Virus record (IMG/VR): IMGVR_UViG_2636415858_000002
Span: 1 to 25,935 of that record
Origin: a virus
Taxonomy: Duplodnaviria; Heunggongvirae; Uroviricota; Caudoviricetes
DNA length: 25,935 nt
Direction: 5' to 3' (one strand)
In this document: in pieces, positions 1 to 18,420 of the stretch
How positions within the stretch are numbered: the stretch's first letter is position 1
Layout of the letters: the number at the start of each line of letters is the position of its first letter
Notes under the pieces: model-generated
Databases searched by the model: none
Told to the model about the DNA's origin: nothing
What the model saw: the letters and a program-made list of their open reading frames with translations, nothing else
Made by a program: the position numbers and the translations under genes

Positions 1-375
<375 letters not shown>

Positions 376-713
376 CTGATAAAAGCGCCCTGTACTGGTT
401 AGCAATAGCAAATTTACTCCCAGCTGCTCTGATTTCAAGAAAGCTGTACACCTCCCTTATGCCTATATTTTTAACCGGAACACCACCAAAGTATTCACTT
501 ATGATTTTCAACCTCTGGTTGTGTCTTTTCATGGTGTTTGTGCTTAATTGTCTACGCTCTATTTCATTTCTGAAATTTAATATCAGCTCGCAGAATAATG
601 TTACGCTATTACCTTTTATTCTATCCAGTAAGCTTATATGTTGCGTGGATAATAATTCCATATTTGCCGCAATAGCCTCATTAACTGCAATTCTTTTGTC
701 TCTTCCGATTCCA
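376..713 (-). pseudogene. int: lambda-type tyrosine integrase, N-terminal fragment cut at both ends by IS elements
   Basis: Minus-strand translation GIGRDKRIAVNEAIAANMELLS...NSVTLFCELILNFRNEI parallels lambda Int GLGRDRRIAITEAIQANIELFS...NSVTLHSWLDRYEKIL (recalled); bounded by IS1 at 714 and IS911 at 375. Confidence 0.55.
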
Positions 714-728
714 GGTAATGACTCCAAC

Positions 729-1232
729 TTACTGATAGTGTTTTATGTTCAGATAATGCCCGATGACCTTGTCATGCAGCTCCACCGATTTTGAGAACGA
801 CAGTGACTTCCGTCCCAGCCTTGCCAGATGTTGTCTCAGATTCAGATTATGTCGCTCAATGCGCTGAGTGTAACGCTTGCTGATAACGTGCAGCTTTCCC
901 TTCAGGCGTGATTCATACAGCGGCCAGCCATCCGTCATCCATACCACGACCTCAAAGGCCGACAGCAGGCTCAGAAGACGCTCCAGTGTGGCCAGAGTGC
1001 GTTCACCGAAGACGTGCGCCACAACCGTCCTCCGTATCCTGTCATACGCGTAAAACAGCCAGCGCTGACGTGATTTAGCACCGACGTAGCCCCACTGTTC
1101 GTCCATTTCAGCGCAGACAATCACATCACTGCCCGGTTGTATGCGCGAGGTTACCGACTGCGGCCTGAGTTTTTTAAGTGACGTAAAACCGTGTTGAGGC
1201 CAACGCCCATAATGCGTGCACTGGCGCGACAT
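729..1232 (-). CDS. insB: IS1 InsB frame (normally expressed as InsAB fusion by -1 frameshift)
   Basis: 167-aa ORF overlapping insA end in the -1 frame, typical IS1 organisation. Confidence 0.85.
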
Positions 1233-1426
1233 CCGACGCCATTCATGGCCATATCAATGATTTTCTGGTGCGTACCGGGCTGAGAGGCGGTGTAAGTGAA
1301 CTGTAGTTGCCATGTTTTACGGCAATGAGAGCAGAGATAGCGCTGATGTCCGGCAGTGCTTTTGCCGTTACGCACCACGCCTTCAGTAGCGGAGCAGGAA
1401 GGACATCTGATGGAAATGGAAGCCAC
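1151..1426 (-). CDS. insA: IS1 InsA
   Basis: 91-aa [45 protein letters not shown]..., zinc-finger/HTH protein of IS1. Confidence 0.9.
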
Positions 1427-1778
1427 GCAAGCACCTTAAAATCACCATCATACACTAAATCAGTAAGTTGGCAGCATTACCCCATTGCTGGCATAAATTC
1501 AGTTTCGAATATTCAGTTAATTAAAGTTCGTGTGCCATCTTGTCTTTTTCGGCACAAGCTGCACCGCAATATTTTCGTTTCTTTCTGGCAATCATGTTTC
1601 CATGCATATAAATAAGCTCGCCAGTAAAAGCTTTTTCAGGTAAAAACTGTTTATTGCAGAGATGGTAATCACATTGTATTAAATCCGGGTCACCTTTTTG
1701 CTGGAGAATTTTTCTGATTCTCCACAGCCATTTTTTAATCCCGGTATGACTGATGGTCTGCCTGAGGTGGTTCTTTTT

Positions 1779-2597
1779 TTAAGCAGCCATCTGATGATAT
1801 TTTTCCCTGAAGGCTGCCGGGGAGATATTCCCCAGACGAGAGTGACGACGCTGACGATTGTAGAAAATCTCAATGTATTCCCGTATTACTGAGATGGCTT
1901 CATCCCGGTTATTAAAATGATAGTGGCTCAGGCTCTCATTTTTCAGCGTTCCCCAGAAGCTTTCCATCGGAGCGTTGTCGTAACAGTGACCTTTACGCGA
2001 CATTGATGTTTTCAGACCAGACTGCTCCTGTATGACCCGGTAATCGTATGCGCAGTACTGTGAACCTCGATCAGAGTGGTGGATTAGCCCGGCAGGTGGG
2101 CGCTGGCTCCTGAGCGCCATAAACAGGGCTTTACCTGTCAGCTCTTTTGTCATGCGCTCTCCCATGGCGTAGCCGACAATTTCGCACGTATAAACATCTT
2201 TGATGCCAGCGAGGTACAACCATCCCTCCTGTGTGGCAACATACGTCAGGTCCGCCACCCAGACCTGATTTGGTGCTGTAGGAGCGAACGTCTGGTTCAG
2301 CAGATTTGGCGCAACTGGCAGATTGTGGTTCGGGTTCGTAGTCGCTCTGAACTTGCGTTTCTGCTTACAGCGTAGCCTTAGCTCCTTACGAAGACGTGCC
2401 AGTCGGTCACGACCAACGATGATGCCATTCTCTGCCAGCTCCGTCTGGAGCCGCCGGGTTCCATATGTTTCGCGAGTGCGGATATGTGCCACCTTAATCT
2501 CCAGTTTTAGCCGCTCATCACTTTGTTTTCTGTCTGAGGGTTCATGCTGTACCCAGTTGTAATAACCGCTCCTGGATACACCAAATACCTGACACAT
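1779..2597 (-). CDS. IS600 OrfB transposase catalytic frame (DDE)
   Basis: 272-aa ORF MCQVFGVSRSGYYNW...; one substitution (SHYHF vs SHYRF) relative to the other three copies. Confidence 0.85.
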   Translation of the reverse strand: MCQVFGVSRSGYYNWVQHEPSDRKQSDERLKLEIKVAHIRTRETYGTRRLQTELAENGIIVGRDRLARLRKELRLRCKQKRKFRATTNPNHNLPVAPNLLNQTFAPTAPNQVWVADLTYVATQEGWLYLAGIKDVYTCEIVGYAMGERMTKELTGKALFMALRSQRPPAGLIHHSDRGSQYCAYDYRVIQEQSGLKTSMSRKGHCYDNAPMESFWGTLKNESLSHYHFNNRDEAISVIREYIEIFYNRQRRHSRLGNISPAAFREKYHQMAA

Positions 2598-2646
2598 CGC
2601 TTCAATGGGAAATTGTTGTCGCCATTGTTCGATTAACGCGTATTTT

Positions 2647-2934
2647 TCAGCGACTCCTGTGCAAAATACGCTGTTGCTTTTTTAATATATCTCGCTCAAG
2701 GCGAGCTTCATTTAACGCCTTACGCAGTTGCAGAATTTCAGATTCCAGTTCAGCCACCGTGCGGGAACCAGGAGTACCGAGCCCTTTTCTGGCGGCGGTA
2801 ACCCATTGTCCTAAAGTGCCTTCAGGAAGGGATAATCGGGAAGCGCCTTCACTGATCGAAAGTTGATTTTCAAGAACCGTTCTGACAGCTTCGGCTTTGA
2901 ACTCTTTAGAGTAACGTTGGTTTTTTCTGCTCAT
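2647..2934 (-). CDS. IS600 OrfA, 95-aa variant (ends KKQQRILHRSR)
   Basis: ORF-track protein; differs from the 100-aa form only after the poly-A run. Confidence 0.8.
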   Translation of the reverse strand: MSRKNQRYSKEFKAEAVRTVLENQLSISEGASRLSLPEGTLGQWVTAARKGLGTPGSRTVAELESEILQLRKALNEARLERDILKKQQRILHRSR

Positions 2935-2998
2935 TATTAGCTCCTTCTGATGCCATTCTATTTCAGGAAGGAGTGTCCGTTAAACTCAGGCTACCTCA

Positions 2999-3187
2999 AT
3001 CTTCTCTTATTTTGAAATACAGATTCGTCAGATAAGTCAGAAGCCCCAGAAGCAGACTTCCCAGCACACCAATCGCAGCCCACTGTGATGGACTGACCTG
3101 ATCCAACCACTGCAAAAACCAGTAGCCGGCACTGCCGGCGGAGGTGCCGTAGGCAATGCCCGTTGAAATTTTGTCCATGGATTTCAT
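2999..3187 (-). pseudogene. phage-21-type class II holin (S21/EssD-like), truncated at C-terminus by IS600
   Basis: [63 protein letters not shown]; dual-start M-K-S-M motif; GGAGGTGA RBS; stop codon supplied by the IS600 terminus at 2996..2998. Confidence 0.75.
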
Positions 3188-3348
3188 AGCCTCACCTCCG
3201 CAAATAACGGATGGCGTAGTTTTACACTGAGAAATGAAAGGGATTTGAAAAGAAAAAAACGCAAAAGCGGGCGAAACGATATATACAGTAAGGAAAGCAC
3301 TCTATCCAACAAACCACCCACAGTTAATCGGAATAAAAGCAGAGTGCT

Positions 3349-3420
3349 TATGAATGATCGCACGCCCGAAGGTTAGTATTTCTGCACAGCAATTTTGCAA
3401 AAAAAGGCGATCATTCATAA
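3349..3420. repeat. 14-bp perfect inverted repeat (ttatgaatgatcgc / gcgatcattcataa) with 44-bp spacer
   Basis: Read directly; lies between tRNA-Gly and the holin start. Confidence 0.6.
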
Positions 3421-3479
3421 CTTAAACGTCTTTCAGTCACTCCGGGATTTCCCATCATCGCAGACTGAAAGACTCTGAC

Positions 3480-3554
<75 letters not shown>

Positions 3555-3557
3555 ATA

Positions 3558-3633
<76 letters not shown>

Positions 3634-3635
3634 GC

Positions 3636-3712
3636 TGGCCCACCACCGAGGACTCGAACCTCGCACCGTCAACTTAGAAGGTTGATGCTCTATCCGGATG
3701 AGCTAGTGGTGG
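3636..3712 (-). tRNA. tRNA-Arg (anticodon UCU), atypical C1-G72 acceptor end; phage-type
   Basis: CCACCACTAGCTCATCCGGATAGAGCATCAACCTTCTAAGTTGACGGTGCGAGGTTCGAGTCCTCGGTGGTGGGCCA; anticodon loop CTTCTAA, T-loop TTCGAGT; manual fold only. Confidence 0.55.
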
Positions 3713-3716
3713 TTGG

Positions 3717-3790
3717 TGGCCCTTGCTGGACTTGAACCAGCGACCTGGCGATTATGAGTCGCTCGCTCTGACCAACTGAGCTAAAGGGCC
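3717..3790 (-). tRNA. tRNA with CAU anticodon (Ile2/lysidine-type, ileX-like; elongator Met not excluded)
   Basis: GGCCCTTTAGCTCAGTTGGTCAGAGCGAGCGACTCATAATCGCCAGGTCGCTGGTTCAAGTCCAGCAAGGGCCACCA; resembles E. coli ileX as recalled. Confidence 0.65.
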
Positions 3791-3799
3791 GGAGGCAGA

Positions 3800-3828
3800 A
3801 TAATAACCATATGTCATCACATCTGCAA
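3800..3828 (-). promoter_or_regulatory. sigma70-like promoter candidate for the tRNA cluster (-35 TTGCAG, 17-bp spacer, -10 TATTAT)
   Basis: Motifs read on the minus strand; -10 ends about 9 nt upstream of the first tRNA 5' end. Confidence 0.3.
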
Positions 3829-3877
3829 ACTCATCTGACCACCAGCACGTTTAACGTCCTGTGCCGTTTTTCAGGTA

Positions 3878-3900
3878 TAAAAAAACCCGCATAAAGCGGG
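3878..3900 (-). terminator. intrinsic terminator candidate (stem cccgc/gcggg followed by 7 U on minus strand)
   Basis: Plus strand aaaaaaacccgcataaagcggg; short GC stem with U-tract on the minus strand. Confidence 0.4.
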
Positions 3901-4320
3901 CTCTTTCAAATGTCCATGTGAAGTGGTCAACAAAAACTGGCCACCGAGTTAGAGTTTTTCCAGTATCGATTTTCCGATTCGTTTGGGGGTAACCCACCGT
4001 TATATTCGTGCGGTCTTAGTGCGCTGTAATATCCAACGATATAGTCCGTTATGGCGTGAGCTGCCTCGCTGGGTAATGCTGCCAACTTACTGATTTAGTG
4101 TATGATGGTGATTTTAAGGTGCTTGCGTGGCTTCCATTTCCATCAGATGTCCTTCCTGCTCCGCTACTGAAGGCGTGGTGCGTAACGGCAAAAGCACTGC
4201 CGGACATCAGCGCTATCTCTGCTCTCATTGCCGTAAAACATGGCAACTACAGTTCACTTACACTGCCTCTCAGCCCGGTACGCACCAGAAAATCATTGAT
4301 ATGGCCATGAATGGCGTCGG

Positions 4321-5872
<1,552 letters not shown>

Positions 5873-6017
5873 TGGAGCACCTGTGTTGTTCTGAGGTGAG
5901 CATATCACCTCTGTTCAGGTGGCCAAATTCAGTGTGCCACTTCAGGTGCCGAACCTTCCTCCGGATATAATCTGTGATTCCCCAATCAACAGAACCAGAG
6001 GAGGTTCGGCATAAACA

Positions 6018-6440
6018 TCAATGCACAACGACAGAATCGTCGGACGACCCACCACCGCTGAAATGTGCTTTCCGGTAAACGGCCTGAACTGCGTCATCAT
6101 GCGCATCAATTGCCGTACTCAACGCTTCCTGCGCCGCCAGTAATGCACGGCGTTCCAGGGTATCGAAGATACAGAGTCGGTGACGCAGCTCACGCGGAAG
6201 AATTGCCAGAACCGCAGGGATCAGTTTCTGAATTTTCTCCCTTTGCGCTTTCGTTTCACCTTTCAACCAACGGTGATAGATATTCTGCTGATTGTTCCAG
6301 TCCTTGCCTGGTACCAGAGGCAATTCGCCGCCCCCCTGCCGCAGATATTCTTCAGTAATTGCGTTAGCGACCCACGCCTGCCCTTTTTCGGCTGCCAGGG
6401 CTAACAGCACTGATTCGATGTGCTCATGCCTGATTTTCAT
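6018..6440 (-). CDS. ydaT: ydaT-like prophage protein (Rac-type CII-like/toxin-like)
   Basis: 140-aa ORF MKIRHEHIESVLLALAAEKGQAW...; resembles YdaT as recalled (MKIKHEHI... start); overlaps the upstream cro-like gene by 17 nt. Confidence 0.55.
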   Translation of the reverse strand: MKIRHEHIESVLLALAAEKGQAWVANAITEEYLRQGGGELPLVPGKDWNNQQNIYHRWLKGETKAQREKIQKLIPAVLAILPRELRHRLCIFDTLERRALLAAQEALSTAIDAHDDAVQAVYRKAHFSGGGSSDDSVVVH

Positions 6441-7490: not shown

Positions 7491-7577
7491 TCCATTTATT
7501 GGATTAATTCAATATTCTCGCTGTAGAGGTATAGTGAGGTGTACTGGCAATAGCGGACACTACCATTTGTTCTTTTT

Positions 7578-8396
7578 TTAAGCAGCCATCTGATGATATT
7601 TTTCCCTGAAGGCTGCCGGGGAGATATTCCCCAGACGAGAGTGACGACGCTGACGATTGTAGAAAATCTCAATGTATTCCCGTATTACTGAGATGGCTTC
7701 ATCCCGGTTATTAAAACGATAGTGGCTCAGGCTCTCATTTTTCAGCGTTCCCCAGAAGCTTTCCATCGGAGCGTTGTCGTAACAGTGACCTTTACGCGAC
7801 ATTGATGTTTTCAGACCAGACTGCTCCTGTATGACCCGGTAATCGTATGCGCAGTACTGTGAACCTCGATCAGAGTGGTGGATTAGCCCGGCAGGTGGGC
7901 GCTGGCTCCTGAGCGCCATAAACAGGGCTTTACCTGTCAGCTCTTTTGTCATGCGCTCTCCCATGGCGTAGCCGACAATTTCGCACGTATAAACATCTTT
8001 GATGCCAGCGAGGTACAACCATCCCTCCTGTGTGGCAACATACGTCAGGTCCGCCACCCAGACCTGATTTGGTGCTGTAGGAGCGAACGTCTGGTTCAGC
8101 AGATTTGGCGCAACTGGCAGATTGTGGTTCGGGTTCGTAGTCGCTCTGAACTTGCGTTTCTGCTTACAGCGTAGCCTTAGCTCCTTACGAAGACGTGCCA
8201 GTCGGTCACGACCAACGATGATGCCATTCTCTGCCAGCTCCGTCTGGAGCCGCCGGGTTCCATATGTTTCGCGAGTGCGGATATGTGCCACCTTAATCTC
8301 CAGTTTTAGCCGCTCATCACTTTGTTTTCTGTCTGAGGGTTCATGCTGTACCCAGTTGTAATAACCGCTCCTGGATACACCAAATACCTGACACAT
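7578..8396 (-). CDS. IS600 OrfB
   Basis: 272-aa DDE transposase frame. Confidence 0.9.
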   Translation of the reverse strand: MCQVFGVSRSGYYNWVQHEPSDRKQSDERLKLEIKVAHIRTRETYGTRRLQTELAENGIIVGRDRLARLRKELRLRCKQKRKFRATTNPNHNLPVAPNLLNQTFAPTAPNQVWVADLTYVATQEGWLYLAGIKDVYTCEIVGYAMGERMTKELTGKALFMALRSQRPPAGLIHHSDRGSQYCAYDYRVIQEQSGLKTSMSRKGHCYDNAPMESFWGTLKNESLSHYRFNNRDEAISVIREYIEIFYNRQRRHSRLGNISPAAFREKYHQMAA

Positions 8397-8431
8397 CGCT
8401 TCAATGGGAAATTGTTGTCGCCATTGTTCGA

Positions 8432-8734
8432 TTAACGCGTATTTTTCAGCGACTCCTGTGCAAAATACGCTGTTGCTTTTTTTAATATATCTCGCTCAAG
8501 GCGAGCTTCATTTAACGCCTTACGCAGTTGCAGAATTTCAGATTCCAGTTCAGCCACCGTGCGGGAACCAGGAGTACCGAGCCCTTTTCTGGCGGCGGTA
8601 ACCCATTGTCCTAAAGTGCCTTCAGGAAGGGATAATCGGGAAGCGCCTTCACTGATCGAAAGTTGATTTTCAAGAACCGTTCTGACAGCTTCGGCTTTGA
8701 ACTCTTTAGAGTAACGTTGGTTTTTTCTGCTCAT
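8432..8734 (-). CDS. IS600 OrfA (100 aa)
   Basis: MSRKNQRYSKEFKAEAVRTVLENQLSISEGASRLSLPEGTLGQW...KKATAYFAQESLKNTR. Confidence 0.9.
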   Translation of the reverse strand: MSRKNQRYSKEFKAEAVRTVLENQLSISEGASRLSLPEGTLGQWVTAARKGLGTPGSRTVAELESEILQLRKALNEARLERDILKKATAYFAQESLKNTR

Positions 8735-8857
8735 TATTAGCTCCTTCTGATGCCATTCTATTTCAGGAAGGAGTGTCCGTTAAACTCAGGCTACCTCAGC
8801 CTGAGGGCAGGTGTAAAACAATAATCAAGCATGGGGTTCATATCCATAGCTCCATTT

Positions 8858-9403
8858 TTATTTTAAGGAAAGCAACTGCTCTACGGTCATGTTTTTAATT
8901 GCGCCCCGGTTTACAAGAGTCCAGCCCTGTTTTTCCAGATAAAACCGGAAAGTCTCCAGGGTACAGACCAGTGCGCCATCAGGAACGGTTTCGGTGAATT
9001 CGACATTGCCGAATTTGTCGAAGTGAACAACCAGAGTGCGACCATCACCCGGAATCATCTTGTCAGCAGGTGGGGTGTTATTCTGGCGCAGTTCGGCCTC
9101 CATGCGGTCGAACTCAGCAATGTAGGCTTCCTTGAATGTGGCGGCTTTTTTGCCCGTGAAGCCCATCACCAGGAAAACGAAGCCGTTTTTGGTGATTTGG
9201 TAGGCGTTATAAGAATTGCCGCGGTGTTCGAATTTAACCCGCGAAAAGTTGCTGGTTAAAAATAGTTCAGAACATTCGAAGGATTCTATTTTTTGAACAA
9301 CATGGTGATGCTGCTTGCCAAAAAACTCAGCAATCGAAATAGAAGTAGTGACGGCGCGACCATTTTCGATGGTTACGTCAGGGTGAGAAAGGGTAGTAGC
9401 CAT
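8858..9403 (-). CDS. rha: Rha-family phage regulatory protein
   Basis: Start MATTLSHPDVTIENGRAVTTSISIAEFFGKQHHHVVQKIESF... with GAGGA RBS; the longer track ORF (to 9697) is an in-frame non-coding extension. Confidence 0.7.
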   Translation of the reverse strand: MATTLSHPDVTIENGRAVTTSISIAEFFGKQHHHVVQKIESFECSELFLTSNFSRVKFEHRGNSYNAYQITKNGFVFLVMGFTGKKAATFKEAYIAEFDRMEAELRQNNTPPADKMIPGDGRTLVVHFDKFGNVEFTETVPDGALVCTLETFRFYLEKQGWTLVNRGAIKNMTVEQLLSLK

Positions 9404-9567
9404 AATGACATCCTCAAGTGATAAGTTAATTAACTCACCAGCAGAGGTGCTAATCTCATGGGTGGTGAGACGCACAGGGTTAGCACTACCGGTCACTCGA
9501 GAACCCGGCCAGCCTTGCGGCTGCCCCGCACGCCTCACCATAATTTGAATGTGGCTGTGCATTACGC

Positions 9568-9592
9568 ATAAAAAAACCGCTTCAGCGCGGTT
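9568..9592 (-). terminator. intrinsic terminator candidate (stem aaccgc/gcggtt, loop 6 nt, 7 U on minus strand)
   Basis: Plus strand ataaaaaaaccgcttcagcgcggtt. Confidence 0.45.
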
Positions 9593-9719
9593 ATGCGCTC
9601 GAGTAACTTTCGGGGTGCTAATCCCGGCACCCGTTTTATGAGGTGCAGGTGCACTATAATTCCACCCGTTCTGGTTTTCAATAGCTACATTCAACATTTT
9701 CTCTTTCCTTTCATCACCG

Positions 9720-9874
9720 AAGTGAATTTTGTGATGCGGTGCCTAGTGCCTCCAGGTGACGTTAACCAGTTAACAATTACAGTCGGCTTTCCCACCCAAA
9801 CCAATAAGGACTAACATGACTTTTAACTGTGCCGCGTGCGCTTAGCCGCATTCACCGCATCACAAAATTCACTT
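9720..9874. repeat. 22-bp perfect inverted repeats (aagtgaattttgtgatgcggtg / caccgcatcacaaaattcactt) flanking a 111-bp core
   Basis: Read directly: left arm 9720..9741, right arm 9853..9874; core contains near-palindrome gttaaccagttaac. Confidence 0.7.
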
Positions 9875-10141
9875 TAAAAAGGGCGGACATCAGCCAGCAA
9901 TTAAACCGATGCCGCCAACTGGTACTTCACACAGCAATGTCGTTATTTACAACCGGAAGCGCACTCCCACCATTTAAATTTCACAGACAAGACCGACTCT
10001 TTATGAATACCGGAAATGCGCCTTCGTGTTGTGCCCGGTTTTATTTCACCACCTCCGGGCTTTGGTGGCCTCGGCTATGAGGTAGCCTGAGTTTAACGGA
10101 CACTCCTTCCTGAAATAGAATGGCATCAGAAGGAGCTAATA

Positions 10142-10444
10142 ATGAGCAGAAAAAACCAACGTTACTCTAAAGAGTTCAAAGCCGAAGCTGTCAGAACGGT
10201 TCTTGAAAATCAACTTTCGATCAGTGAAGGCGCTTCCCGATTATCCCTTCCTGAAGGCACTTTAGGACAATGGGTTACCGCCGCCAGAAAAGGGCTCGGT
10301 ACTCCTGGTTCCCGCACGGTGGCTGAACTGGAATCTGAAATTCTGCAACTGCGTAAGGCGTTAAATGAAGCTCGCCTTGAGCGAGATATATTAAAAAAAG
10401 CAACAGCGTATTTTGCACAGGAGTCGCTGAAAAATACGCGTTAA
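10142..10444 (+). CDS. IS600 OrfA (100 aa)
   Basis: Identical protein to 8432..8734. Confidence 0.9.
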   Translation: MSRKNQRYSKEFKAEAVRTVLENQLSISEGASRLSLPEGTLGQWVTAARKGLGTPGSRTVAELESEILQLRKALNEARLERDILKKATAYFAQESLKNTR

Positions 10445-10479
10445 TCGAACAATGGCGACAACAATTTCCCATTGAAGCG

Positions 10480-11298
10480 ATGTGTCAGGTATTTGGTGTA
10501 TCCAGGAGCGGTTATTACAACTGGGTACAGCATGAACCCTCAGACAGAAAACAAAGTGATGAGCGGCTAAAACTGGAGATTAAGGTGGCACATATCCGCA
10601 CTCGCGAAACATATGGAACCCGGCGGCTCCAGACGGAGCTGGCAGAGAATGGCATCATCGTTGGTCGTGACCGACTGGCACGTCTTCGTAAGGAGCTAAG
10701 GCTACGCTGTAAGCAGAAACGCAAGTTCAGAGCGACTACGAACCCGAACCACAATCTGCCAGTTGCGCCAAATCTGCTGAACCAGACGTTCGCTCCTACA
10801 GCACCAAATCAGGTCTGGGTGGCGGACCTGACGTATGTTGCCACACAGGAGGGATGGTTGTACCTCGCTGGCATCAAAGATGTTTATACGTGCGAAATTG
10901 TCGGCTACGCCATGGGAGAGCGCATGACAAAAGAGCTGACAGGTAAAGCCCTGTTTATGGCGCTCAGGAGCCAGCGCCCACCTGCCGGGCTAATCCACCA
11001 CTCTGATCGAGGTTCACAGTACTGCGCATACGATTACCGGGTCATACAGGAGCAGTCTGGTCTGAAAACATCAATGTCGCGTAAAGGTCACTGTTACGAC
11101 AACGCTCCGATGGAAAGCTTCTGGGGAACGCTGAAAAATGAGAGCCTGAGCCACTATCGTTTTAATAACCGGGATGAAGCCATCTCAGTAATACGGGAAT
11201 ACATTGAGATTTTCTACAATCGTCAGCGTCGTCACTCTCGTCTGGGGAATATCTCCCCGGCAGCCTTCAGGGAAAAATATCATCAGATGGCTGCTTAA
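10480..11298 (+). CDS. IS600 OrfB
   Basis: Identical protein to 7578..8396; frame is -1 relative to orfA across the A7 run at 10393..10399. Confidence 0.9.
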   Translation: MCQVFGVSRSGYYNWVQHEPSDRKQSDERLKLEIKVAHIRTRETYGTRRLQTELAENGIIVGRDRLARLRKELRLRCKQKRKFRATTNPNHNLPVAPNLLNQTFAPTAPNQVWVADLTYVATQEGWLYLAGIKDVYTCEIVGYAMGERMTKELTGKALFMALRSQRPPAGLIHHSDRGSQYCAYDYRVIQEQSGLKTSMSRKGHCYDNAPMESFWGTLKNESLSHYRFNNRDEAISVIREYIEIFYNRQRRHSRLGNISPAAFREKYHQMAA

Positions 11299-11343
11299 AA
11301 AAAGAACAAATGGTAGTGTCCGCTATTGCCAGTACACCTCATG

Positions 11344-11720
11344 ATGGACTGTGTGCAGTTTGTTCCCGATCCGAAAAAACGCAGCATCCGGAGACCGCTT
11401 GTTGAAGAGGATATTGAAGAAATCATTACCCGTCTTAATCTGCGTGCGGAGGTCTTTAAGCTGCATGTGGATTTTTTCGCTACCGTCGTCAGCTAGATAT
11501 CCCCCCGCGTTATCTCGACCCCGACAGACCGTTCGGGGTGGTGGATTACGTTAATGTTCCCCGTACCATTGCGACCGTTATCTCCTCCGGTAAGGCTTCA
11601 AAAGCTGAACTGGATTCTGTCCTTGGTGTGCAGGACTTATGGGATCTGCTGGAAATAATTCATGTGGATGCCCATAACGAACAGGTGATACAGGAGAACA
11701 GAAATGGCGCAGGTACTTGA
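11344..11720 (+). pseudogene. tail assembly chaperone G/GT-type 3' fragment with -1 frameshift site; 5' part removed by IS600
   Basis: Upstream frame ends VDFFATVVS* at 11496; slippery heptamer T TTT TTC at 11472..11478; -1 frame stays open to 11720, overlapping the tape-measure start. Confidence 0.5.
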
Positions 11721-13725
11721 TGAGCTTGTTCTGTCCCTCGGGATTGATGACAGGGACTTTACTGCCGGGGAACAGGCAGTACATGCTGCCCTTAACCGGC
11801 TCACGACGGTGATGGAAGGTGTCGCTGACACATTCAGTCAGGGACAGAAGAAAACCAGTGAATCACTGGAAAAAACCGGAAAAGATGCTGATAAAACGGC
11901 CCGTCGAATGGAAGATGCCGGGAAACGGGCGTCCCGTTTTTTTTCAGGGATCCGTAGCGAGATTCTGGCTCTTGCGGGTGTCAGTCTGACGCTGGGGGGG
12001 CTGAAGAACCTGGTAACAGGTTTTGCCCGTGATCTGAACCGTCTGTCCGTGGAATCCGATGCTTTTGGCATGAAGGCCAGAAATCTGGACGGATGGTTAC
12101 GGGCTGCGCGGGCAAATAATGTTGATGAAGGGGAAATGTCTGGGGCATTTTCCCGGCTTGCAAATGCAAAAGCGGCCTTCAGAGCCGGAAGGTCCTTTGA
12201 TCCTGTGTTACAGGATTTGTTTCAGGTTGCAGCCAGGGCGGGCATTAGTGTTGATTTAAATACTGACAGCACTGAAGCCATCATGCGCAAGCTGGCGGTT
12301 ATTTTTCCGCGACTGACAAAGTCCGAACAAACTGCCTACGGCAACGCGCTGGGCTTCAGTTATGCCGGACAGCAGTTTCTTGGCTCCGGTCATGCGCTGA
12401 AAGATGTGGACGAATTTACTTCCCGTTCGCAGGTTACGCCGGGGCGTACAGCGCTGGCCCGTAAGCTACGAAAAGAGCTTGTTGAGCTCGATCAGACCTG
12501 GTCCGGCATCGGGATGACGATTAGCACCGCGTTGATGCCGTACGCGCTGAAGCTCAGCCACTGGCTGGAGACACTCGGTGACTGGATGCAGCAACATCCG
12601 GAGGAAGTGAACAGGTTTATCACCACATTTCTGAATGACGTTGAGTCAGTGGCCTCCCTGGCGAATAAGGCTGCCGGAGAACTGGGGGGCTGGCAGAATG
12701 TCATTATTACGCTGATCGGGCTGAAAGTGGCGTCATGGGTGCGGGGGCTGACAAAAGCCCTCAGTGGCCCCGGAGGCCTTCTTTTTGCGATAACGGCGCT
12801 TTACCCGGTTGTTGACGGATTACTGACATCCATTGTTGGCAGGGAAAATAAGGACTGGCTGGATTCACATGGTTTTTTCTGGGCTTCAGACGGGACTTTC
12901 TTTTTCAATAAGAAAGAGATGGAGACGTATCAGACAAAACTGGATGTCGGAGAAAAGCCTGGCAACATCACCCGGGCACAATCACCCACAGTATGGCAGC
13001 AGGGCATGCTGGATACTCAGGCTTCTCAGGCAACCGGGAGGGAAGCAGCCTTCGGTGAATCCTGGCTACAGGGTATGCGTGCGACGCAGGAAAAACTCGG
13101 TAATGCCATGCAAAACCGCCAGCGACCGACGAAGACCGGGGAAGCCCTGTTAGGCTGGCTGCAACCGAAACTGTCTCAACTGGAGGAAAAATATAACCTG
13201 CCGCCCGGACTGCTGCGCAGCGTTGCGATCACCGAATCCCGTGGTAATCAGTTTGCCGTCTCACCTGCTGGTGCGATGGGACTGTTTCAGTTCATGCCGA
13301 AGACGGCCAGTGAATTTGGTCTGAGGGGGAACGATGCCTTTGATCCCGAAAAAGCCGCTGATGCCGCCGCGAGAAAACTTGGTGGCCTGATACGTTTTTT
13401 TCATGGCGATCTGGCTAAGGCTCTGGCGGCATATAACTGGGGAGAGGGAAATGTTCAGCGTAAGGGACTGGCTGCTGCTCCGGAGGAGACCCGCAACTAT
13501 ATTCCGCGGGTGCTGGCGAACCTGCCTTATCCGGGTGCGGCAATGGCCATACGGTCGCTCCATCCTGCGCCTGTATCGCAGTCCACCGTAACGGAAACCA
13601 CGCATATCGGGACACTGAATGTCACCACAACGTCGGACAATGTGAAGGGTATTACCGATGACGCACGTCGGCGTATCACGAATTCGGCGCTTGTGTCGGT
13701 TTATTCCAGCGGGGTAACAGGATGA
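11704..13725 (+). CDS. tail tape-measure-like protein with C-terminal lytic transglycosylase (SLT) domain
   Basis: 673 aa; AGGAGA RBS; SLT motifs ITESRGNQFAVSPAGAMGLFQFMP and AAYNWGEGN; position directly after chaperone frameshift site. Confidence 0.7.
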   Translation: MAQVLDELVLSLGIDDRDFTAGEQAVHAALNRLTTVMEGVADTFSQGQKKTSESLEKTGKDADKTARRMEDAGKRASRFFSGIRSEILALAGVSLTLGGLKNLVTGFARDLNRLSVESDAFGMKARNLDGWLRAARANNVDEGEMSGAFSRLANAKAAFRAGRSFDPVLQDLFQVAARAGISVDLNTDSTEAIMRKLAVIFPRLTKSEQTAYGNALGFSYAGQQFLGSGHALKDVDEFTSRSQVTPGRTALARKLRKELVELDQTWSGIGMTISTALMPYALKLSHWLETLGDWMQQHPEEVNRFITTFLNDVESVASLANKAAGELGGWQNVIITLIGLKVASWVRGLTKALSGPGGLLFAITALYPVVDGLLTSIVGRENKDWLDSHGFFWASDGTFFFNKKEMETYQTKLDVGEKPGNITRAQSPTVWQQGMLDTQASQATGREAAFGESWLQGMRATQEKLGNAMQNRQRPTKTGEALLGWLQPKLSQLEEKYNLPPGLLRSVAITESRGNQFAVSPAGAMGLFQFMPKTASEFGLRGNDAFDPEKAADAAARKLGGLIRFFHGDLAKALAAYNWGEGNVQRKGLAAAPEETRNYIPRVLANLPYPGAAMAIRSLHPAPVSQSTVTETTHIGTLNVTTTSDNVKGITDDARRRITNSALVSVYSSGVTG

Positions 13726-14432
13726 GTTTTTCTTTCGATAATATTTCCCTGAATAACTTTTCGCTCAGTGAAAGTAACGTACTGAGTGCAGTTCGTGGCG
13801 GCGGTGTCCTGGGACTCATTAATAGTGTACTGGCACCGTCATTCGGTATTTATTACGCACGGAATGATCCGGCAGGTGCCCATCAGAAGGGTGGCAAACC
13901 TTTCTCCCCGGATTCTTTTGTTGTCGTTGAGGTGGGCGCGGAGGCTTCTGTTTCCACCGTCCCCGTGGAGCAGGGGGCTTATACCACCTTTAATAAAATC
14001 CAGAGATCGCCGGAACTGCATGTGACTTTCATTGTAGAGGGGTGGACGGCCTTTTCCGGATCCGTCCCGAACCTGACAAATTTTTCCACCACCTCGCGGA
14101 CGAATGTGCTGGAAACGCTTGAAAGGATGCGTACCACGGCAGGACTCTACGATATTGAGACGCCGGACAAGACATGGACATCCTGCGACCTTGTGAAATA
14201 TGACTACCGAATGCGAAGTAATAATGGTCCGACCTTACTGACGGTTACTGCGGTATTTCAGACCGTAATGAATACAGGAGAGGTGTCAGTGGGAAGTACG
14301 GATAAGTCGTCTCCCACGGACAACGATAAAGCAAAAGGGGCCGCATCGGTTAAAACGCAGCCAGTTACGGCGTCGGTGACACAACCGTCAGACGCTGACA
14401 GACGAAGTGCCACGAACAGGGGGATCACCTGA
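13722..14432 (+). CDS. phage tail protein, function unassigned
   Basis: 236-aa ORF; ATGA overlap with the tape-measure stop; no family recognised. Confidence 0.5.
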
Positions 14433-14734
14433 TGCTGGAAATTGTTTTATCTCCCGTTAAAGCCCAGCAGTTTACGGTGACACTGGGCGCTCAGGTCTGC
14501 ACCATTCGCCTGAATCAGCGTACTACGGGGATGTATATCGATATCATTGTTAATGGTGAACCGTGCCTGTATGGCGTGCTGTGTCTGAATAATAACCGGA
14601 TTGTCCGGTACGGATACCTGCCGTTTCAGGGGGACCTGTTTTTTACCGACACGGAGGGGAATAGTGACCCTGACTGGCGGGGGCTCGGATCCCGGTACCG
14701 GCTCTACTGGCTGTTACCTGAGGAACTGATATGA
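14432..14734 (+). CDS. phage tail protein, function unassigned
   Basis: 100-aa ORF; TGATG overlap with the upstream gene; no family recognised. Confidence 0.45.
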
Positions 14735-14841
14735 GCTACAGACAACGTAAAATAAGTAAGCGTAAACTGACCGCCGTATGTAGCCATTAAGCCTGTATTG
14801 GTAACGTAGGTGCCCACCTTTTCAACTAGTGGACACCTGTT

Positions 14842-15261
14842 ATGGAACAGAAAGCATTATCTGCAGAACCCCGCAGATCATTTTCAAATGAGTTTAAACT
14901 TCAAATGGTTAAACTGGCTTCACAACCAGGAGCCTCTGTTGCCCGTATTGCCCGGGAACACGATATCAATGATAACCTGCTGTTCAAATGGCTCAGGCTC
15001 TGGCAGAACGAAGGGCGCATATCGCGGCGTCTTCCGGTAACAACCTCTTCTGACACTGGCGTTGAATTATTACCTGTGGAGATAACGCCGGATGAGCCGA
15101 AAGAACCTGTGGCTGCTCTTACTTCGTCTTTATCTACTCAGACTACAGTTAGTGCCAGCTCCTGCAAGGTGGAGTTCCGTCACGGTAACATGACGCTGGA
15201 AAATCCTTCACCAGAGCTGCTCACAGTGTTGATCCGTGAACTGACCGGGAGGGGACGATGA
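14842..15261 (+). CDS. IS66-family Orf1 (HTH accessory protein)
   Basis: 139-aa ORF, first of the three-gene IS66 arrangement. Confidence 0.7.
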   Translation: MEQKALSAEPRRSFSNEFKLQMVKLASQPGASVARIAREHDINDNLLFKWLRLWQNEGRISRRLPVTTSSDTGVELLPVEITPDEPKEPVAALTSSLSTQTTVSASSCKVEFRHGNMTLENPSPELLTVLIRELTGRGR

Positions 15262-15608
15262 TCTCACTCCCGTCAGGCACCCGCATCTGGCTCGTTGCTG
15301 GGATAACCGATATGCGTAAGTCTTTCAACGGGCTGGGTGAACAGGTACAGCATGTGCTGAATGATAATCCCTTCTCCGGTCACCTGTTCATCTTCCGTGG
15401 CCGACGGGGTGACATGATTAAAATCCTGTGGGCTGATGCTGATGGTCTGTGCCTGTTCACCAGACGCCTGGAGGAAGGCCAGTTTATCTGGCCTGCTGTG
15501 CGTGACGGCAAGGTATCCATTACCCGCTCGCAACTGGCAATGCTCCTCGATAAGCTGGACTGGCGTCAGCCAAAAACATCCCGCCTTAATGCACTGACAA
15601 TGTTGTAA
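15258..15608 (+). CDS. IS66-family Orf2 (TnpB-type accessory protein)
   Basis: 116-aa ORF MISLPSGTRIWLVAGITDMRKSFNGL... Confidence 0.75.
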   Translation: MISLPSGTRIWLVAGITDMRKSFNGLGEQVQHVLNDNPFSGHLFIFRGRRGDMIKILWADADGLCLFTRRLEEGQFIWPAVRDGKVSITRSQLAMLLDKLDWRQPKTSRLNALTML

Positions 15609-15638
15609 AAATGTCATGGCCGGATTATAAAAACGGCC

Positions 15639-17231
15639 ATGAATCAAAAATACCTCATTCGCATTGCAGAACTGGAATGCCAGCTCCGTCAGAAAGACCA
15701 GCAACTGAGTCTGGTTGAAGAGACGGAGGCCTTCCTGCGCTCTGCACTGGCCCGCGCCGAAGAAAAGATCGAAGAAGATGAACGGGAAATAGAACATCTG
15801 CGGGCTCAGATAGAAAAACTGCGCCGGATGCTGTTCGGTACCCGTTCTGAAAAACTGCGTCGTGAAGTTGAACAGGCTGAGGCCCTGCTGAAACAACGCG
15901 AACAGGACAGTGATCGTTACAGTGGGCGGGAAGACGATCCGCAGGTTCCCCGCCAGTTGCGACAGTCTCGTCATCGTCGCCCGTTACCGGAGCATCTGCC
16001 CCGCGAAATAAATCGCCTGGAGCCAGAAGAAAGCTGTTGCCCGGAGTGTGGCGGTGAGCTGGATTATCTGGGGGAAGTCAGCGCAGAACAACTGGAACTG
16101 GTGAGCAGCGCTCTGAAAGTGATCCGCACAGAACGGGTAAAAAAAGCCTGTACAAAATGTGACTGCATCGTTGAAGCACCGGCACCATCCCGTCCGATAG
16201 AGCGTGGTATCGCGGGCCCGGGGTTACTTGCCCGCGTGTTAACGGGAAAATACTGCGAACACCTGCCACTGTATCGTCAGAGTGAAATTTTTGCCCGTCA
16301 GGGTGTCGAACTGAGCCGTGCATTACTCTCCAACTTGGTTGACGCGTGCTGCCAGTTAATGACGCCGCTGAATGATGCTCTGTACCGTTATGTAATGAAC
16401 AGCCGCAAAGTTCACACTGATGACACACCAGTAAAAGTGCTGGCACCGGGCAGGAAGAAGGCGAAAACAGGATATATCTGGACGTATGTCCGGGATGACA
16501 GGAATGCCGGTTCGCCAGAGCCTCCGGCGGTCTGGTTCGCCTACTCACCGGACCATCAGGGTAAACATCCGGAGCAGCACCTTAGTCCCTTCCGGGGTAT
16601 CCTGCAGGCAGATGCGTTTAATGGTTACGATCGGCTGTTCAGTGCCGAACGAGAAGGCGGCGCGTTGACGGAAGCAGGATGCTGGGCTCATGCGCGGCGC
16701 AAAGTCCACGATGTATATATCAGTACCAAAAGCGCGACAGCGGAAGAAGCCCTGAAACTAATCGGTGAGCTGTACGCCATCGAGCACGAAATACGCGGGT
16801 TGCCGGTGTCTGAACGCCTGGCGGTCAGGCAAATGCAGAGTAAACCGCTACTGACTTCCCTGTATAAGCTGATGCAGGAGAAAGAACACACGTTATCGAA
16901 AAAATGCCGTCTGAGAGATGCGTTCCGGTATATCAGGAAGCACTGGGTTGCGTTGTGCAACTTCAGTGATGATGGTCTGGCTGAGGCGGATAATAATGCC
17001 GCGGAAAGAGCGCTTCGTGCAGTCTGTCTCGGAAAGAAAAACTTTATGTTCTTCGGCAGCGATCACGGTGGAGAGCGTGGTGCGCTACTGTACGGGCTGA
17101 TCGGCACCTGCCGACTGAACGGTATCGATCCGGAAGCGTATCTGCGCTATATCCTGAGCGTACTGCCGGAATGGCCTTCCAACCGTGTTGACGAACTCCT
17201 GCCATGGAACGTAGCACTCACCAATAAATAA
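15639..17231 (+). CDS. IS66-family transposase (Orf3)
   Basis: 530-aa ORF with N-terminal coiled coil, CPECGG zinc-finger-like motif and DDE-type core. Confidence 0.8.
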
Positions 17232-17262
17232 GCGTCAATACGGTGCTCCGTTGACGCTTACC

Positions 17263-18006
17263 CATGATACTGATGTAGTCACGCTTTATCGTTTTCACGA
17301 AGCTCTCTGCTATTCCGTTACTCTCCGGACTCCGCACCGCCGTGTTCTTCGGTTCAAGTCCCAACATCCGGGCGAACTGGCGTGCTTCATTAGCCCGGTA
17401 GCATGAACCATTATCCGTCAGCCACTCCACTGGAGACGACGGAAGATCGTTGCCGAAGCGGCGTTCCACCGCTCCCAGCATGACGTCCTGTACTGTTTCA
17501 CTGTTGAAGCCGCCGGTAGTCACCGCCCAGTGCAGTGCCTCACGATCACAGCAGTCCAGCGCGAACGTGACACGCAGTCTCTCTCCGTTATCACAGCAGA
17601 ACTCGAACCCGTCAGAGCACCATCGCTGATTGCTTTCTTTCACGGCCACTCTGCCTGTATGTGCCCGTTTCGATGGCGGTACAGCAGGTTTTCGCTCAAG
17701 CAACAGCGCATTCTGGCGCATGATCCGGTAAACACGTTTGGCATTGATCGCAGGCATACCATCAAGTTCTGCCTGTCTGCGAAGCAGCGCCCATACCCGA
17801 CGATAACCATACGTGGGCAGCTCTCCGATAACATGGTGTATACGGAGAAGCACATCCGTATCATCAGTGTGACGACTGCGGCGGCCATCCATCCAGTCAT
17901 CGGTTCGTCTGAGAATGACGTGCAACTGCGCACGCGACACCCGGAGACAACGGCTGACTAAGCTTACTCCCCATCCCCGGGCAATAAGGGCGCGTGCGCT
18001 ATCCAC
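17263..18006 (-). pseudogene. insD: IS2 OrfB transposase, C-terminally truncated
   Basis: Matches InsD up to ...KRDYISIM, then reads into the IS66-family element end. Confidence 0.8.
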
Positions 18007-18329
18007 TTTTTTGCCCGTCCATATTCAACGGCTTCTTTGAGGAGTTCATTTTCCATCGTTTTCTTGCCGAGCAGGCGCTGGAGTTCTTTAATCTGCTTCA
18101 TGGCGGCAGCAAGTTCAGAGGCAGGAACAACCTGTTCTCCGGCGGCCACAGCAGTAAGACTTCCTTCCTGGTATTGCTTACGCCAGAGAAATAACTGGCT
18201 GGCTGCTACACCATGTTGCCGGGCAACGAGGGAGACCGTCATCCCCGGTTCAAAGCTCTGCTGAACAATTGCGATCTTTTCCTGTGTGGTACGCCGTCTG
18301 CGTTTCTCCGGCCCTAAGACATCAATCAT
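17964..18329 (-). CDS. insC: IS2 OrfA
   Basis: [56 protein letters not shown]... Confidence 0.85.
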
Positions 18330-18420
18330 CTGTACTCCAATGACTAGTCTAAAAACTAGTATTAAGACTATCACTTATTTAAGTGATACTGGTTGTCTGG
18401 AGATTCAGGGGGCCAGTCTA

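Follow-up and report, generated by a model that had tools for sequence, protein, structure and literature searches.

How does a phage-type holin frame come to stop at the very tip of an insertion sequence, and could the shortened product still be made and act in the membrane? The frame in question lies on the minus strand of the stretch of DNA analysed here, 25,935 nt in its whole length and hereafter called the window, in which the list of open reading frames gives an ORF of 63 amino acids at 2996..3187. In our reading, this ORF is very probably a pseudogene-like remnant of an S gene, produced by a deletion of approximately 15 kb that ends at IS600, by an upstream loss at IS911, and by later inversions. 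The element that carries it would be a prophage of lambdoid organisation in a Shigella chromosome, with ipaH3 among its genes.

Identity of the holin frame and its junction with IS600

Based on the ORF list, the Pfam profile PF04971, alignments, and hydropathy, codons 1–63 of a phage-21-type class II holin (pinholin) can be placed at 2999..3187 on the minus strand. The ORF scores 114.7 bits with PF04971 (“Bacteriophage P21 holin S”), for which the cut-off is 26, at E = 1.8e-33, and covers positions 1–59 of the 64 in the profile; judged by sequence, the family match lies far beyond chance. Residues 1–63 share 97% identity with the S proteins of both phage 21 and phage vB_EcoS-689R5 and 86% with EssD of the DLP12 prophage in Escherichia coli K-12. 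Their identity is 100% to an intact 71-aa E. coli prophage allele, WP_000839570.1, which is found in strains FDAARGOS_943/944 and CFSAN029787 and lies in an ipaH3-carrying prophage. Compared with phage 21 S, the ORF has the substitutions V46L and F49L, both of which are also present in this intact E. coli allele.

The original prediction had recognized a dual-start holin of the phage 21 type from the N-terminus MKSMDK, and this assignment is borne out by the Pfam match, by the alignments with phage 21 S and DLP12 EssD that it had proposed as a check, and by the starts annotated in phage 21. A dual-start motif yields an antiholin with an extra N-terminal Lys, plus the holin. The putative starts in the window are Met1 at 3187..3185 and Met4 at 3178..3176 (minus strand). 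The N-terminus, with Met1-Lys2-Ser3-Met4, is the same as in phage 21, for which the curated record gives Met1 as the start of the antiholin S21-71 and Met4 as the start of the holin (pinholin) S21-68. A Shine-Dalgarno sequence, GGAGG, is located 7 nt 5' of Met1 (3195..3199, minus strand), as seen from the sequence, the alignment, and the annotation of phage 21, where the site is kept and recorded as a ribosome-binding site. In a Kyte-Doolittle profile with a 15-residue window, two hydrophobic segments are predicted, which answers the proposed check by transmembrane-helix prediction: TMD1 at about residues 8–28, which is rich in Gly, Ala, and Ser and weakly hydrophobic (about 0–0.6), and TMD2 at about residues 36–58, which is strongly hydrophobic (up to 2.2). 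The hydropathy thus matches the class II pattern of a weak, SAR-like TMD1 and a hydrophobic, pore-lining TMD2, a combination shared with phage 21 S, and G40, S44, and G48 are conserved between the two proteins.

Within holin codons 17–24 (3125..3139, minus strand), GCCGGC-AGU-GCCGGC forms a perfect hairpin with a U-rich stretch behind it. This hairpin was flagged as terminator-like and rejected, as it is not conserved in phage 21 and is probably incidental to the codons for AGSAG.

The 3' end of the frame is made by the insertion sequence. When the four IS600 copies in the window are aligned with their flanks, the common IS600 sequence starts exactly at TGAGGTAGCC, and the base that precedes it is T, C, A, or G; the TGA stop at 2996..2998 (minus strand) is therefore IS600 DNA, namely, the first three bases of the left inverted repeat (TGAGGTAGCC...), as the comparison with intact alleles also shows. 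In other words, the frame of 63 codons closed by the IS600 terminus, as originally proposed, stands. It had also been supposed that about eight C-terminal residues were replaced. Eight residues, KRKAARGE, are indeed gone, but alignment with the intact allele shows that nothing was added in their place: the product ends at D63, whereas the intact gene continues with GAC AAG CGT AAG GCT GCA CGG GGA GAG TAA. After F58, the tail reads KIRED (net 0) here and KIREDRRKAARGE (net +3) in the intact E. coli allele; the cytoplasmic tail is shortened from KIREDKRKAARGE (net +3) to KIRED (net 0), so that the window product lacks the complete basic C-terminal tail. The predicted product would thus have both transmembrane segments and the dual start, minus most of the basic cytoplasmic tail.

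The identity of the native DNA to the intact allele reaches position 3000. From the terminator described below to codon 63, the DNA of FDAARGOS_944 agrees with the window at 919 of 920 nt, and it is the last base that differs: position 2999 is T on the coding strand and C in the intact allele, a silent change of GAC to GAT in Asp63. No intact allele with GAT at codon 63 was found when the corresponding 57-mer was searched in 5,426 complete E. coli genomes, in which the best match has one mismatch. The T could be either a point mutation or the result of an imprecise junction event.

The IS600 copy at the junction, copy 1 (1236 bp, 1763..2998, minus strand), was delimited by alignment of the copies and is 99.1% identical to the annotated IS600 of L015, the reference prophage introduced in the next section. 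Its left end is intact, but it has a 27-bp deletion just inside its right tip and an A6 run with one A fewer. This deletion is private to the window and is not seen in the closest Shigella genomes; copy 1 is a degraded and probably immobile IS600. Such irregularities, in a region dense in IS copies, are what one might expect if the junction were an artefact of assembly or annotation, a mis-join of repeats. The same 61-nt junction, however, is present in all ten complete Shigella chromosomes examined, which come from independent genomes and include CP000036.1, and the protein occurs on 83 contigs; the chance of an artefact therefore appears to be negligible. The exact 63-aa protein stands in NCBI nr as “MULTISPECIES: phage holin [Shigella]”, its index entries comprise 92 blocks, 23 of them with megabase contigs, and the gene remnant as such is thus already known from public databases.

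IS600 copies, the missing lysis cassette, and the 15-kb gap

IS600, a member of the IS3 family, is 1264 bp long, with TG...CA termini and the genes orfA and orfB, and generates a 3-bp target duplication on simple insertion. The other copies in the window are copy 2 (1264 bp, 7535..8798), copy 3 (1264 bp, 10078..11341), and copy 4 (1263 bp, 20934..22196), and the copies are 99.1–99.3% identical to the RefSeq entry “IS3-like element IS600 family transposase”. In copy 4, the slippery run is A6 rather than A7, and OrfA is cut to 95 aa as a result; these differences in homopolymer length could be real or could be sequencing errors. A proper target duplication (TTG/TTG) is present at copy 4 only. 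For the other three copies, the flanking triplets at 1760-1762, 2999-3001, 7532-7534, 8799-8801, 10075-10077, and 11342-11344 were compared. Copy 1 is flanked by GAT on the holin side and by GGC on the other, without a target-site duplication. The triplets instead form a chain: the right flank of copy 1 equals the left flank of copy 2 (GGC, from an insertion in the YdaE gene), and the right flank of copy 2 equals the left flank of copy 3 (CTA, between Rha and DUF1391). Only the holin side of copy 1 (GAT) and the right side of copy 3 (TGA, beside the SLT region) remain unpaired. It follows from this chain that IS600-mediated inversions have reshuffled the early region of the prophage.

The near-intact ipaH3 prophage of E. 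coli FDAARGOS_943 (L015) served as the reference for the original gene order. Its early part runs through integrase, RecE, YdaE, Rha, repressor, Cro, YdaT, the replication and nin genes, and a Q-like DUF1133 gene; its late part continues with four tRNA genes, the 71-aa holin, lysozyme, Rz, terminase, portal, head, neck, and sheath genes, and, after the sheath, with an SLT-domain protein, baseplate and fibre genes, and ipaH3. The intact allele WP_000839570.1 is likewise preceded by the Q-like DUF1133 gene and followed by a hypothetical gene, lysozyme, and Rz, and its prophage has the same tRNA cluster and spacer as the window. Four segments of the window can be mapped onto L015: 2999-3919 onto 17765-16846, 11341-14755 onto 32900-36314, 1482-1767 onto 4990-5275, and 8796-9918 onto 5265-6387. 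According to this map, the holin junction and the right junction of copy 3 are the two ends of one gap, which measures ~15.1 kb in L015 coordinates, L015's own IS600 included. The gap contains the 3' end of S, the hypothetical gene, endolysin, Rz/Rz1, and the terminase, portal, head, neck, and sheath genes.

We therefore have to ask whether these genes were deleted or merely displaced. In the original prediction, the endolysin gene was spoken of as displaced, and a corresponding explanation can be formulated in which, after a simple IS600 insertion, the rest of S, the endolysin gene, and Rz are intact elsewhere, the cassette having been split by inversion. The flank triplet chain makes inversions between IS600 copies clear, and two alternative downstream contexts exist among Shigella genomes, as such a split would produce. 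Nevertheless, of the eight IS600 ends present in the window, not one adjoins the 3' end of S or offers a partner for the GAT flank, and the displaced 3' end of S was not found in the window by blastn. In addition, tblastn with endolysin (R), Rz, Rz1, and Q from phage 21 and 689R5 revealed no homologue in the 25.9-kb window. The unmatched TGA flank to the right of copy 3, on the SLT side, is collinear with the holin in the intact prophage, lying ~15 kb downstream, which is the signature of a deletion. A split cassette is thus very unlikely, and simple displacement of the endolysin gene gives way to the reading in which the holin junction is one end of the ~15-kb deletion.

In the deletion reading, the left end of IS600 would have been joined directly after codon 63, with its terminal TGA closing the frame, and an IS600-associated deletion of ~15 kb would have removed everything from the rest of S through the sheath genes. 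Later recombination between IS600 copies would then have inverted segments. A trace of the latter is a 3' fragment of a YdaE-family gene (1524..1762, minus strand), which was recognized from synteny with the reference prophage and whose usual place is ~12 kb upstream of the holin. It was moved beside copy 1 by IS600-mediated inversion, and it would lie on the far side of this copy because recombination between IS600 copies inverted the intervening segments.

The arrangement of a pinholin gene followed by SAR endolysin and Rz/Rz1 genes is accordingly not found in the window. The lysis cassette is dead, as had been claimed from the absence of endolysin and Rz genes and as the tblastn search and the comparison with L015 confirm, and packaging and head assembly are dead likewise. 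DLP12 provides an instructive comparison: its essD-rrrD-rzpD genes in E. coli K-12 belong to the same family, and there too a holin has been retained in a defective prophage; unlike in the window, however, the DLP12 holin is of full length, and the endolysin and spanin genes are still adjacent.

In the reference prophage itself, a separate IS600 in the opposite orientation is found at 17792..19556 of L015, 109 nt 3' of the intact holin; both the hypothetical gene and lysozyme are truncated by it. IS600 has thus struck the lysis cassette of this prophage independently on at least two occasions.

The upstream side and the prospects for a functional product

On the upstream side, the surviving phage DNA begins at 3918, reading with the gene, and comprises ~920 bp with a terminator, four tRNA genes, and holin codons 1–63. 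It is bordered by IS911 (3919..5944, minus strand), which was identified by 99.8% identity to annotated copies and by the synteny map and is interrupted in turn by an IS1 (about 4070-4840). The flanks of IS911, ACC and CAT, are not a target duplication, and a YdaT-Cro-repressor module lies past it. Compared with L015, ~8.7 kb is absent at this side, including the replication and nin genes and the Q-like gene. IS911 would thus have taken the place of the replication, nin, and Q-antiterminator genes, of the upstream promoter region, and of all other DNA as far as 10 nt short of the terminator hairpin. It should be mentioned that nested IS insertions (IS911/IS1) accompany this loss of ~8.7 kb, and that 1..1467 is taken up by another IS1 together with the beginning of a further IS911-like orfA.

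The intrinsic-terminator hairpin (3878..3908, minus strand), identified from the sequence and with RNAfold, is strong, with U7 behind the core CCCGC-UUUAU-GCGGG; the folding energy calculated for the region 3918..3860 is -18.7 kcal/mol. The hairpin starts 10 nt into the surviving phage DNA, the tip of IS911 being at 3919. In L015, at least 62 nt separate the Q-like gene from the same terminator, which lies downstream of it; FDAARGOS_944 has an additional, interposed ORF6N gene. Candidate late-promoter sites exist in the intact relatives: TTGACT-17-TATATT at the end of the Q-like gene in the intact relative L003, and TTGC(A/T)T-17-TTCAAT, which is conserved just 5' of the breakpoint in both L003 and L015; neither candidate was flagged in L015 by the consensus scanner. 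In the window, any promoter upstream of the terminator is gone and a Q homologue is missing, so that neither component of late transcription is left. A hybrid promoter combining an outward TTGACC in the tip of IS911 with the flank was also considered and rejected, as no -10-like hexamer occurs at 16–18 nt. In a distant search of the phage collection, 139 bp from around the terminator matched only phiP27, over 53 nt, and this match was uninformative.

Downstream of the terminator lie four prophage tRNA genes (3480..3790, minus strand), with the anticodon CAT in the first and Arg(TCT), Thr(TGT), and Gly(TCC) in the others, as found with ARAGORN, Rfam, and RefSeq. The first tRNA is assigned to Met by ARAGORN and to tRNA-Ile by the RefSeq annotation. 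The cluster is 100% identical to that of an E. coli prophage, and its tRNA genes may be the only functional cargo of the 920-bp island. Between tRNA-Gly and the holin start is a spacer of 292 nt (3188..3479, minus strand), which is identical to that of the intact prophage allele and strongly structured, with a minimum free energy of -89 kcal/mol and U-runs. Just 5' of the first tRNA gene, a consensus scan gave a promoter-like site, TTTGCA-18-TATTAT (3800..3829, minus strand), which is a pattern match only, with 9 of 12 consensus positions, and the sole candidate promoter between the terminator and the holin. The intact prophage, whose lysogens must keep S silent, has the same site.

Could the truncated protein form pores if it were made? 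In the established model, S21 belongs to the class II holins and has the topology N-in, C-in; S21-68 assembles into heptamers whose channels, of ~2 nm, make the proton-motive force collapse, and this frees the membrane-tethered SAR endolysin, whereas S21-71, made from the upstream start, is the antiholin (PMC9636201). According to a preprint, one-residue C-terminal truncations of S21-68 stay functional down to K56, and the C-terminus is largely dispensable for pore assembly (doi 10.1101/2021.04.20.440580). K56 of S21-68 corresponds to K59 in the window product, which ends four residues later at D63. [quoted passage not shown] The engineered S21-56 from the FuN nanopore screen resembles the window product in being C-terminally shortened while keeping the membrane-proximal Lys. 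Unlike the remnant, it is driven by a plasmid promoter and has the phage 21 residues at 46 and 49, whereas the natural remnant extends four residues further and lacks an evident promoter. Measured against phage 21, in turn, the remnant is without the last eight residues of S, the SAR endolysin, the spanins, Q, and the late promoter. The N-terminus of the 689R5 lysozyme (MNAKIRYGLSAAVLALIAVGA...) looks SAR-like, which, as far as sequence can tell, would fit the pairing of pinholin and SAR endolysin in this lineage.

Expression is another matter. The suggestion that a slightly shortened holin might still be expressed finds little support, since Q and all DNA 5' of the terminator have been replaced by IS911; expression of the 63-aa holin looks unlikely, and the remnant is presumably silent or nearly so. 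Low read-through into the ORF from the promoter-like site 5' of the tRNAs could occur, and the ribosome site and both starts are intact. It is highly doubtful, though conceivable, that a low-level product of such read-through acts in Shigella as a stand-alone, faster-triggering, tail-poor pinholin. If this were true, it would be a chromosomal toxin collapsing the proton-motive force, which could add to stress-induced growth arrest or death.

A stronger version of this idea is that the truncated pinholin is expressed, whether from the tRNA promoter or through read-through, and has been kept by selection as a membrane-depolarising protein, in other words, as a domesticated toxin. The intact ORF, ribosome site, and start codons would suit such a role, as would the activity of S21-68 truncated to residue 56, the promoter-like site 5' of the tRNAs, and the identical sequence in 10 of 10 Shigella chromosomes examined. 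This invariance, however, is not particular to the ORF. The 920-bp native segment and the IS911 junction are identical in nine of the ten complete genomes, so that the neighbouring non-coding DNA and the tRNAs are equally invariant, and they match the E. coli prophage as well. As coding and non-coding DNA are equally unchanged, common descent rather than selection on the ORF accounts for the pattern. The loss of Q and of all DNA 5' of the terminator also speaks against the toxin, as does the structured 292-nt spacer with its U-runs between the tRNAs and the ORF, and the same DNA must hold S silent in intact lysogens. We consider a domesticated toxin improbable and infer that the remnant persists by descent.

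Arrangements in Shigella and the remaining window

The closest locus to that of the window is in CP026731.1, with flanks that are 100% identical. The unit of holin and IS600 does not have the same neighbour everywhere. In five of the ten complete Shigella genomes (L005, L006, L007, L010, and L014), it lies directly against the SLT region, whereas in the window and in four others (L009, L011, L012, and L013) the YdaE fragment takes this place, as expected from an inversion between IS600 copies. CP000036.1 (L008) has a further, different arrangement.

At base resolution, the locus illustrates the dismantling of a Shigella prophage by IS600 and IS911; the prophage retains its virulence cargo ipaH3 and its tRNA genes and has lost its lysis, packaging, and regulatory genes. 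It also shows that the terminus of an IS3-family element (TGA...) can close a broken frame, with the result that pipelines annotate a short “holin”. Beyond annotation, the significance is small, the feature being an ordinary remnant.

Several other features of the window deserve mention. At 24124..25935 (minus strand), a 603-aa IpaH-type T3SS effector with LRR_TTSS and NEL E3 ligase domains is encoded, the counterpart of the ipaH3 gene with which the reference prophage ends; this cargo is intact, whereas the functions of the phage are destroyed. Rfam identifies a C4 antisense RNA at 9458..9545 (minus strand, 78.6 bits) and an isrK Hfq-binding RNA at 9570..9646 (minus strand, 68.5 bits), both inside the 5' part of an ORF with Ash/Rha domains (8858..9697). 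This locus is a C4-controlled antirepressor module of the P1/P7 type in the early-left region of the prophage. Finally, 14842..18374 contains an IS66-family element, with a TnpA-like protein, TnpB, and a transposase of 530 aa, as well as another element of the IS3 family; they interrupt the baseplate/tail region, with the plug gene on one side and the tail-fibre genes on the other.
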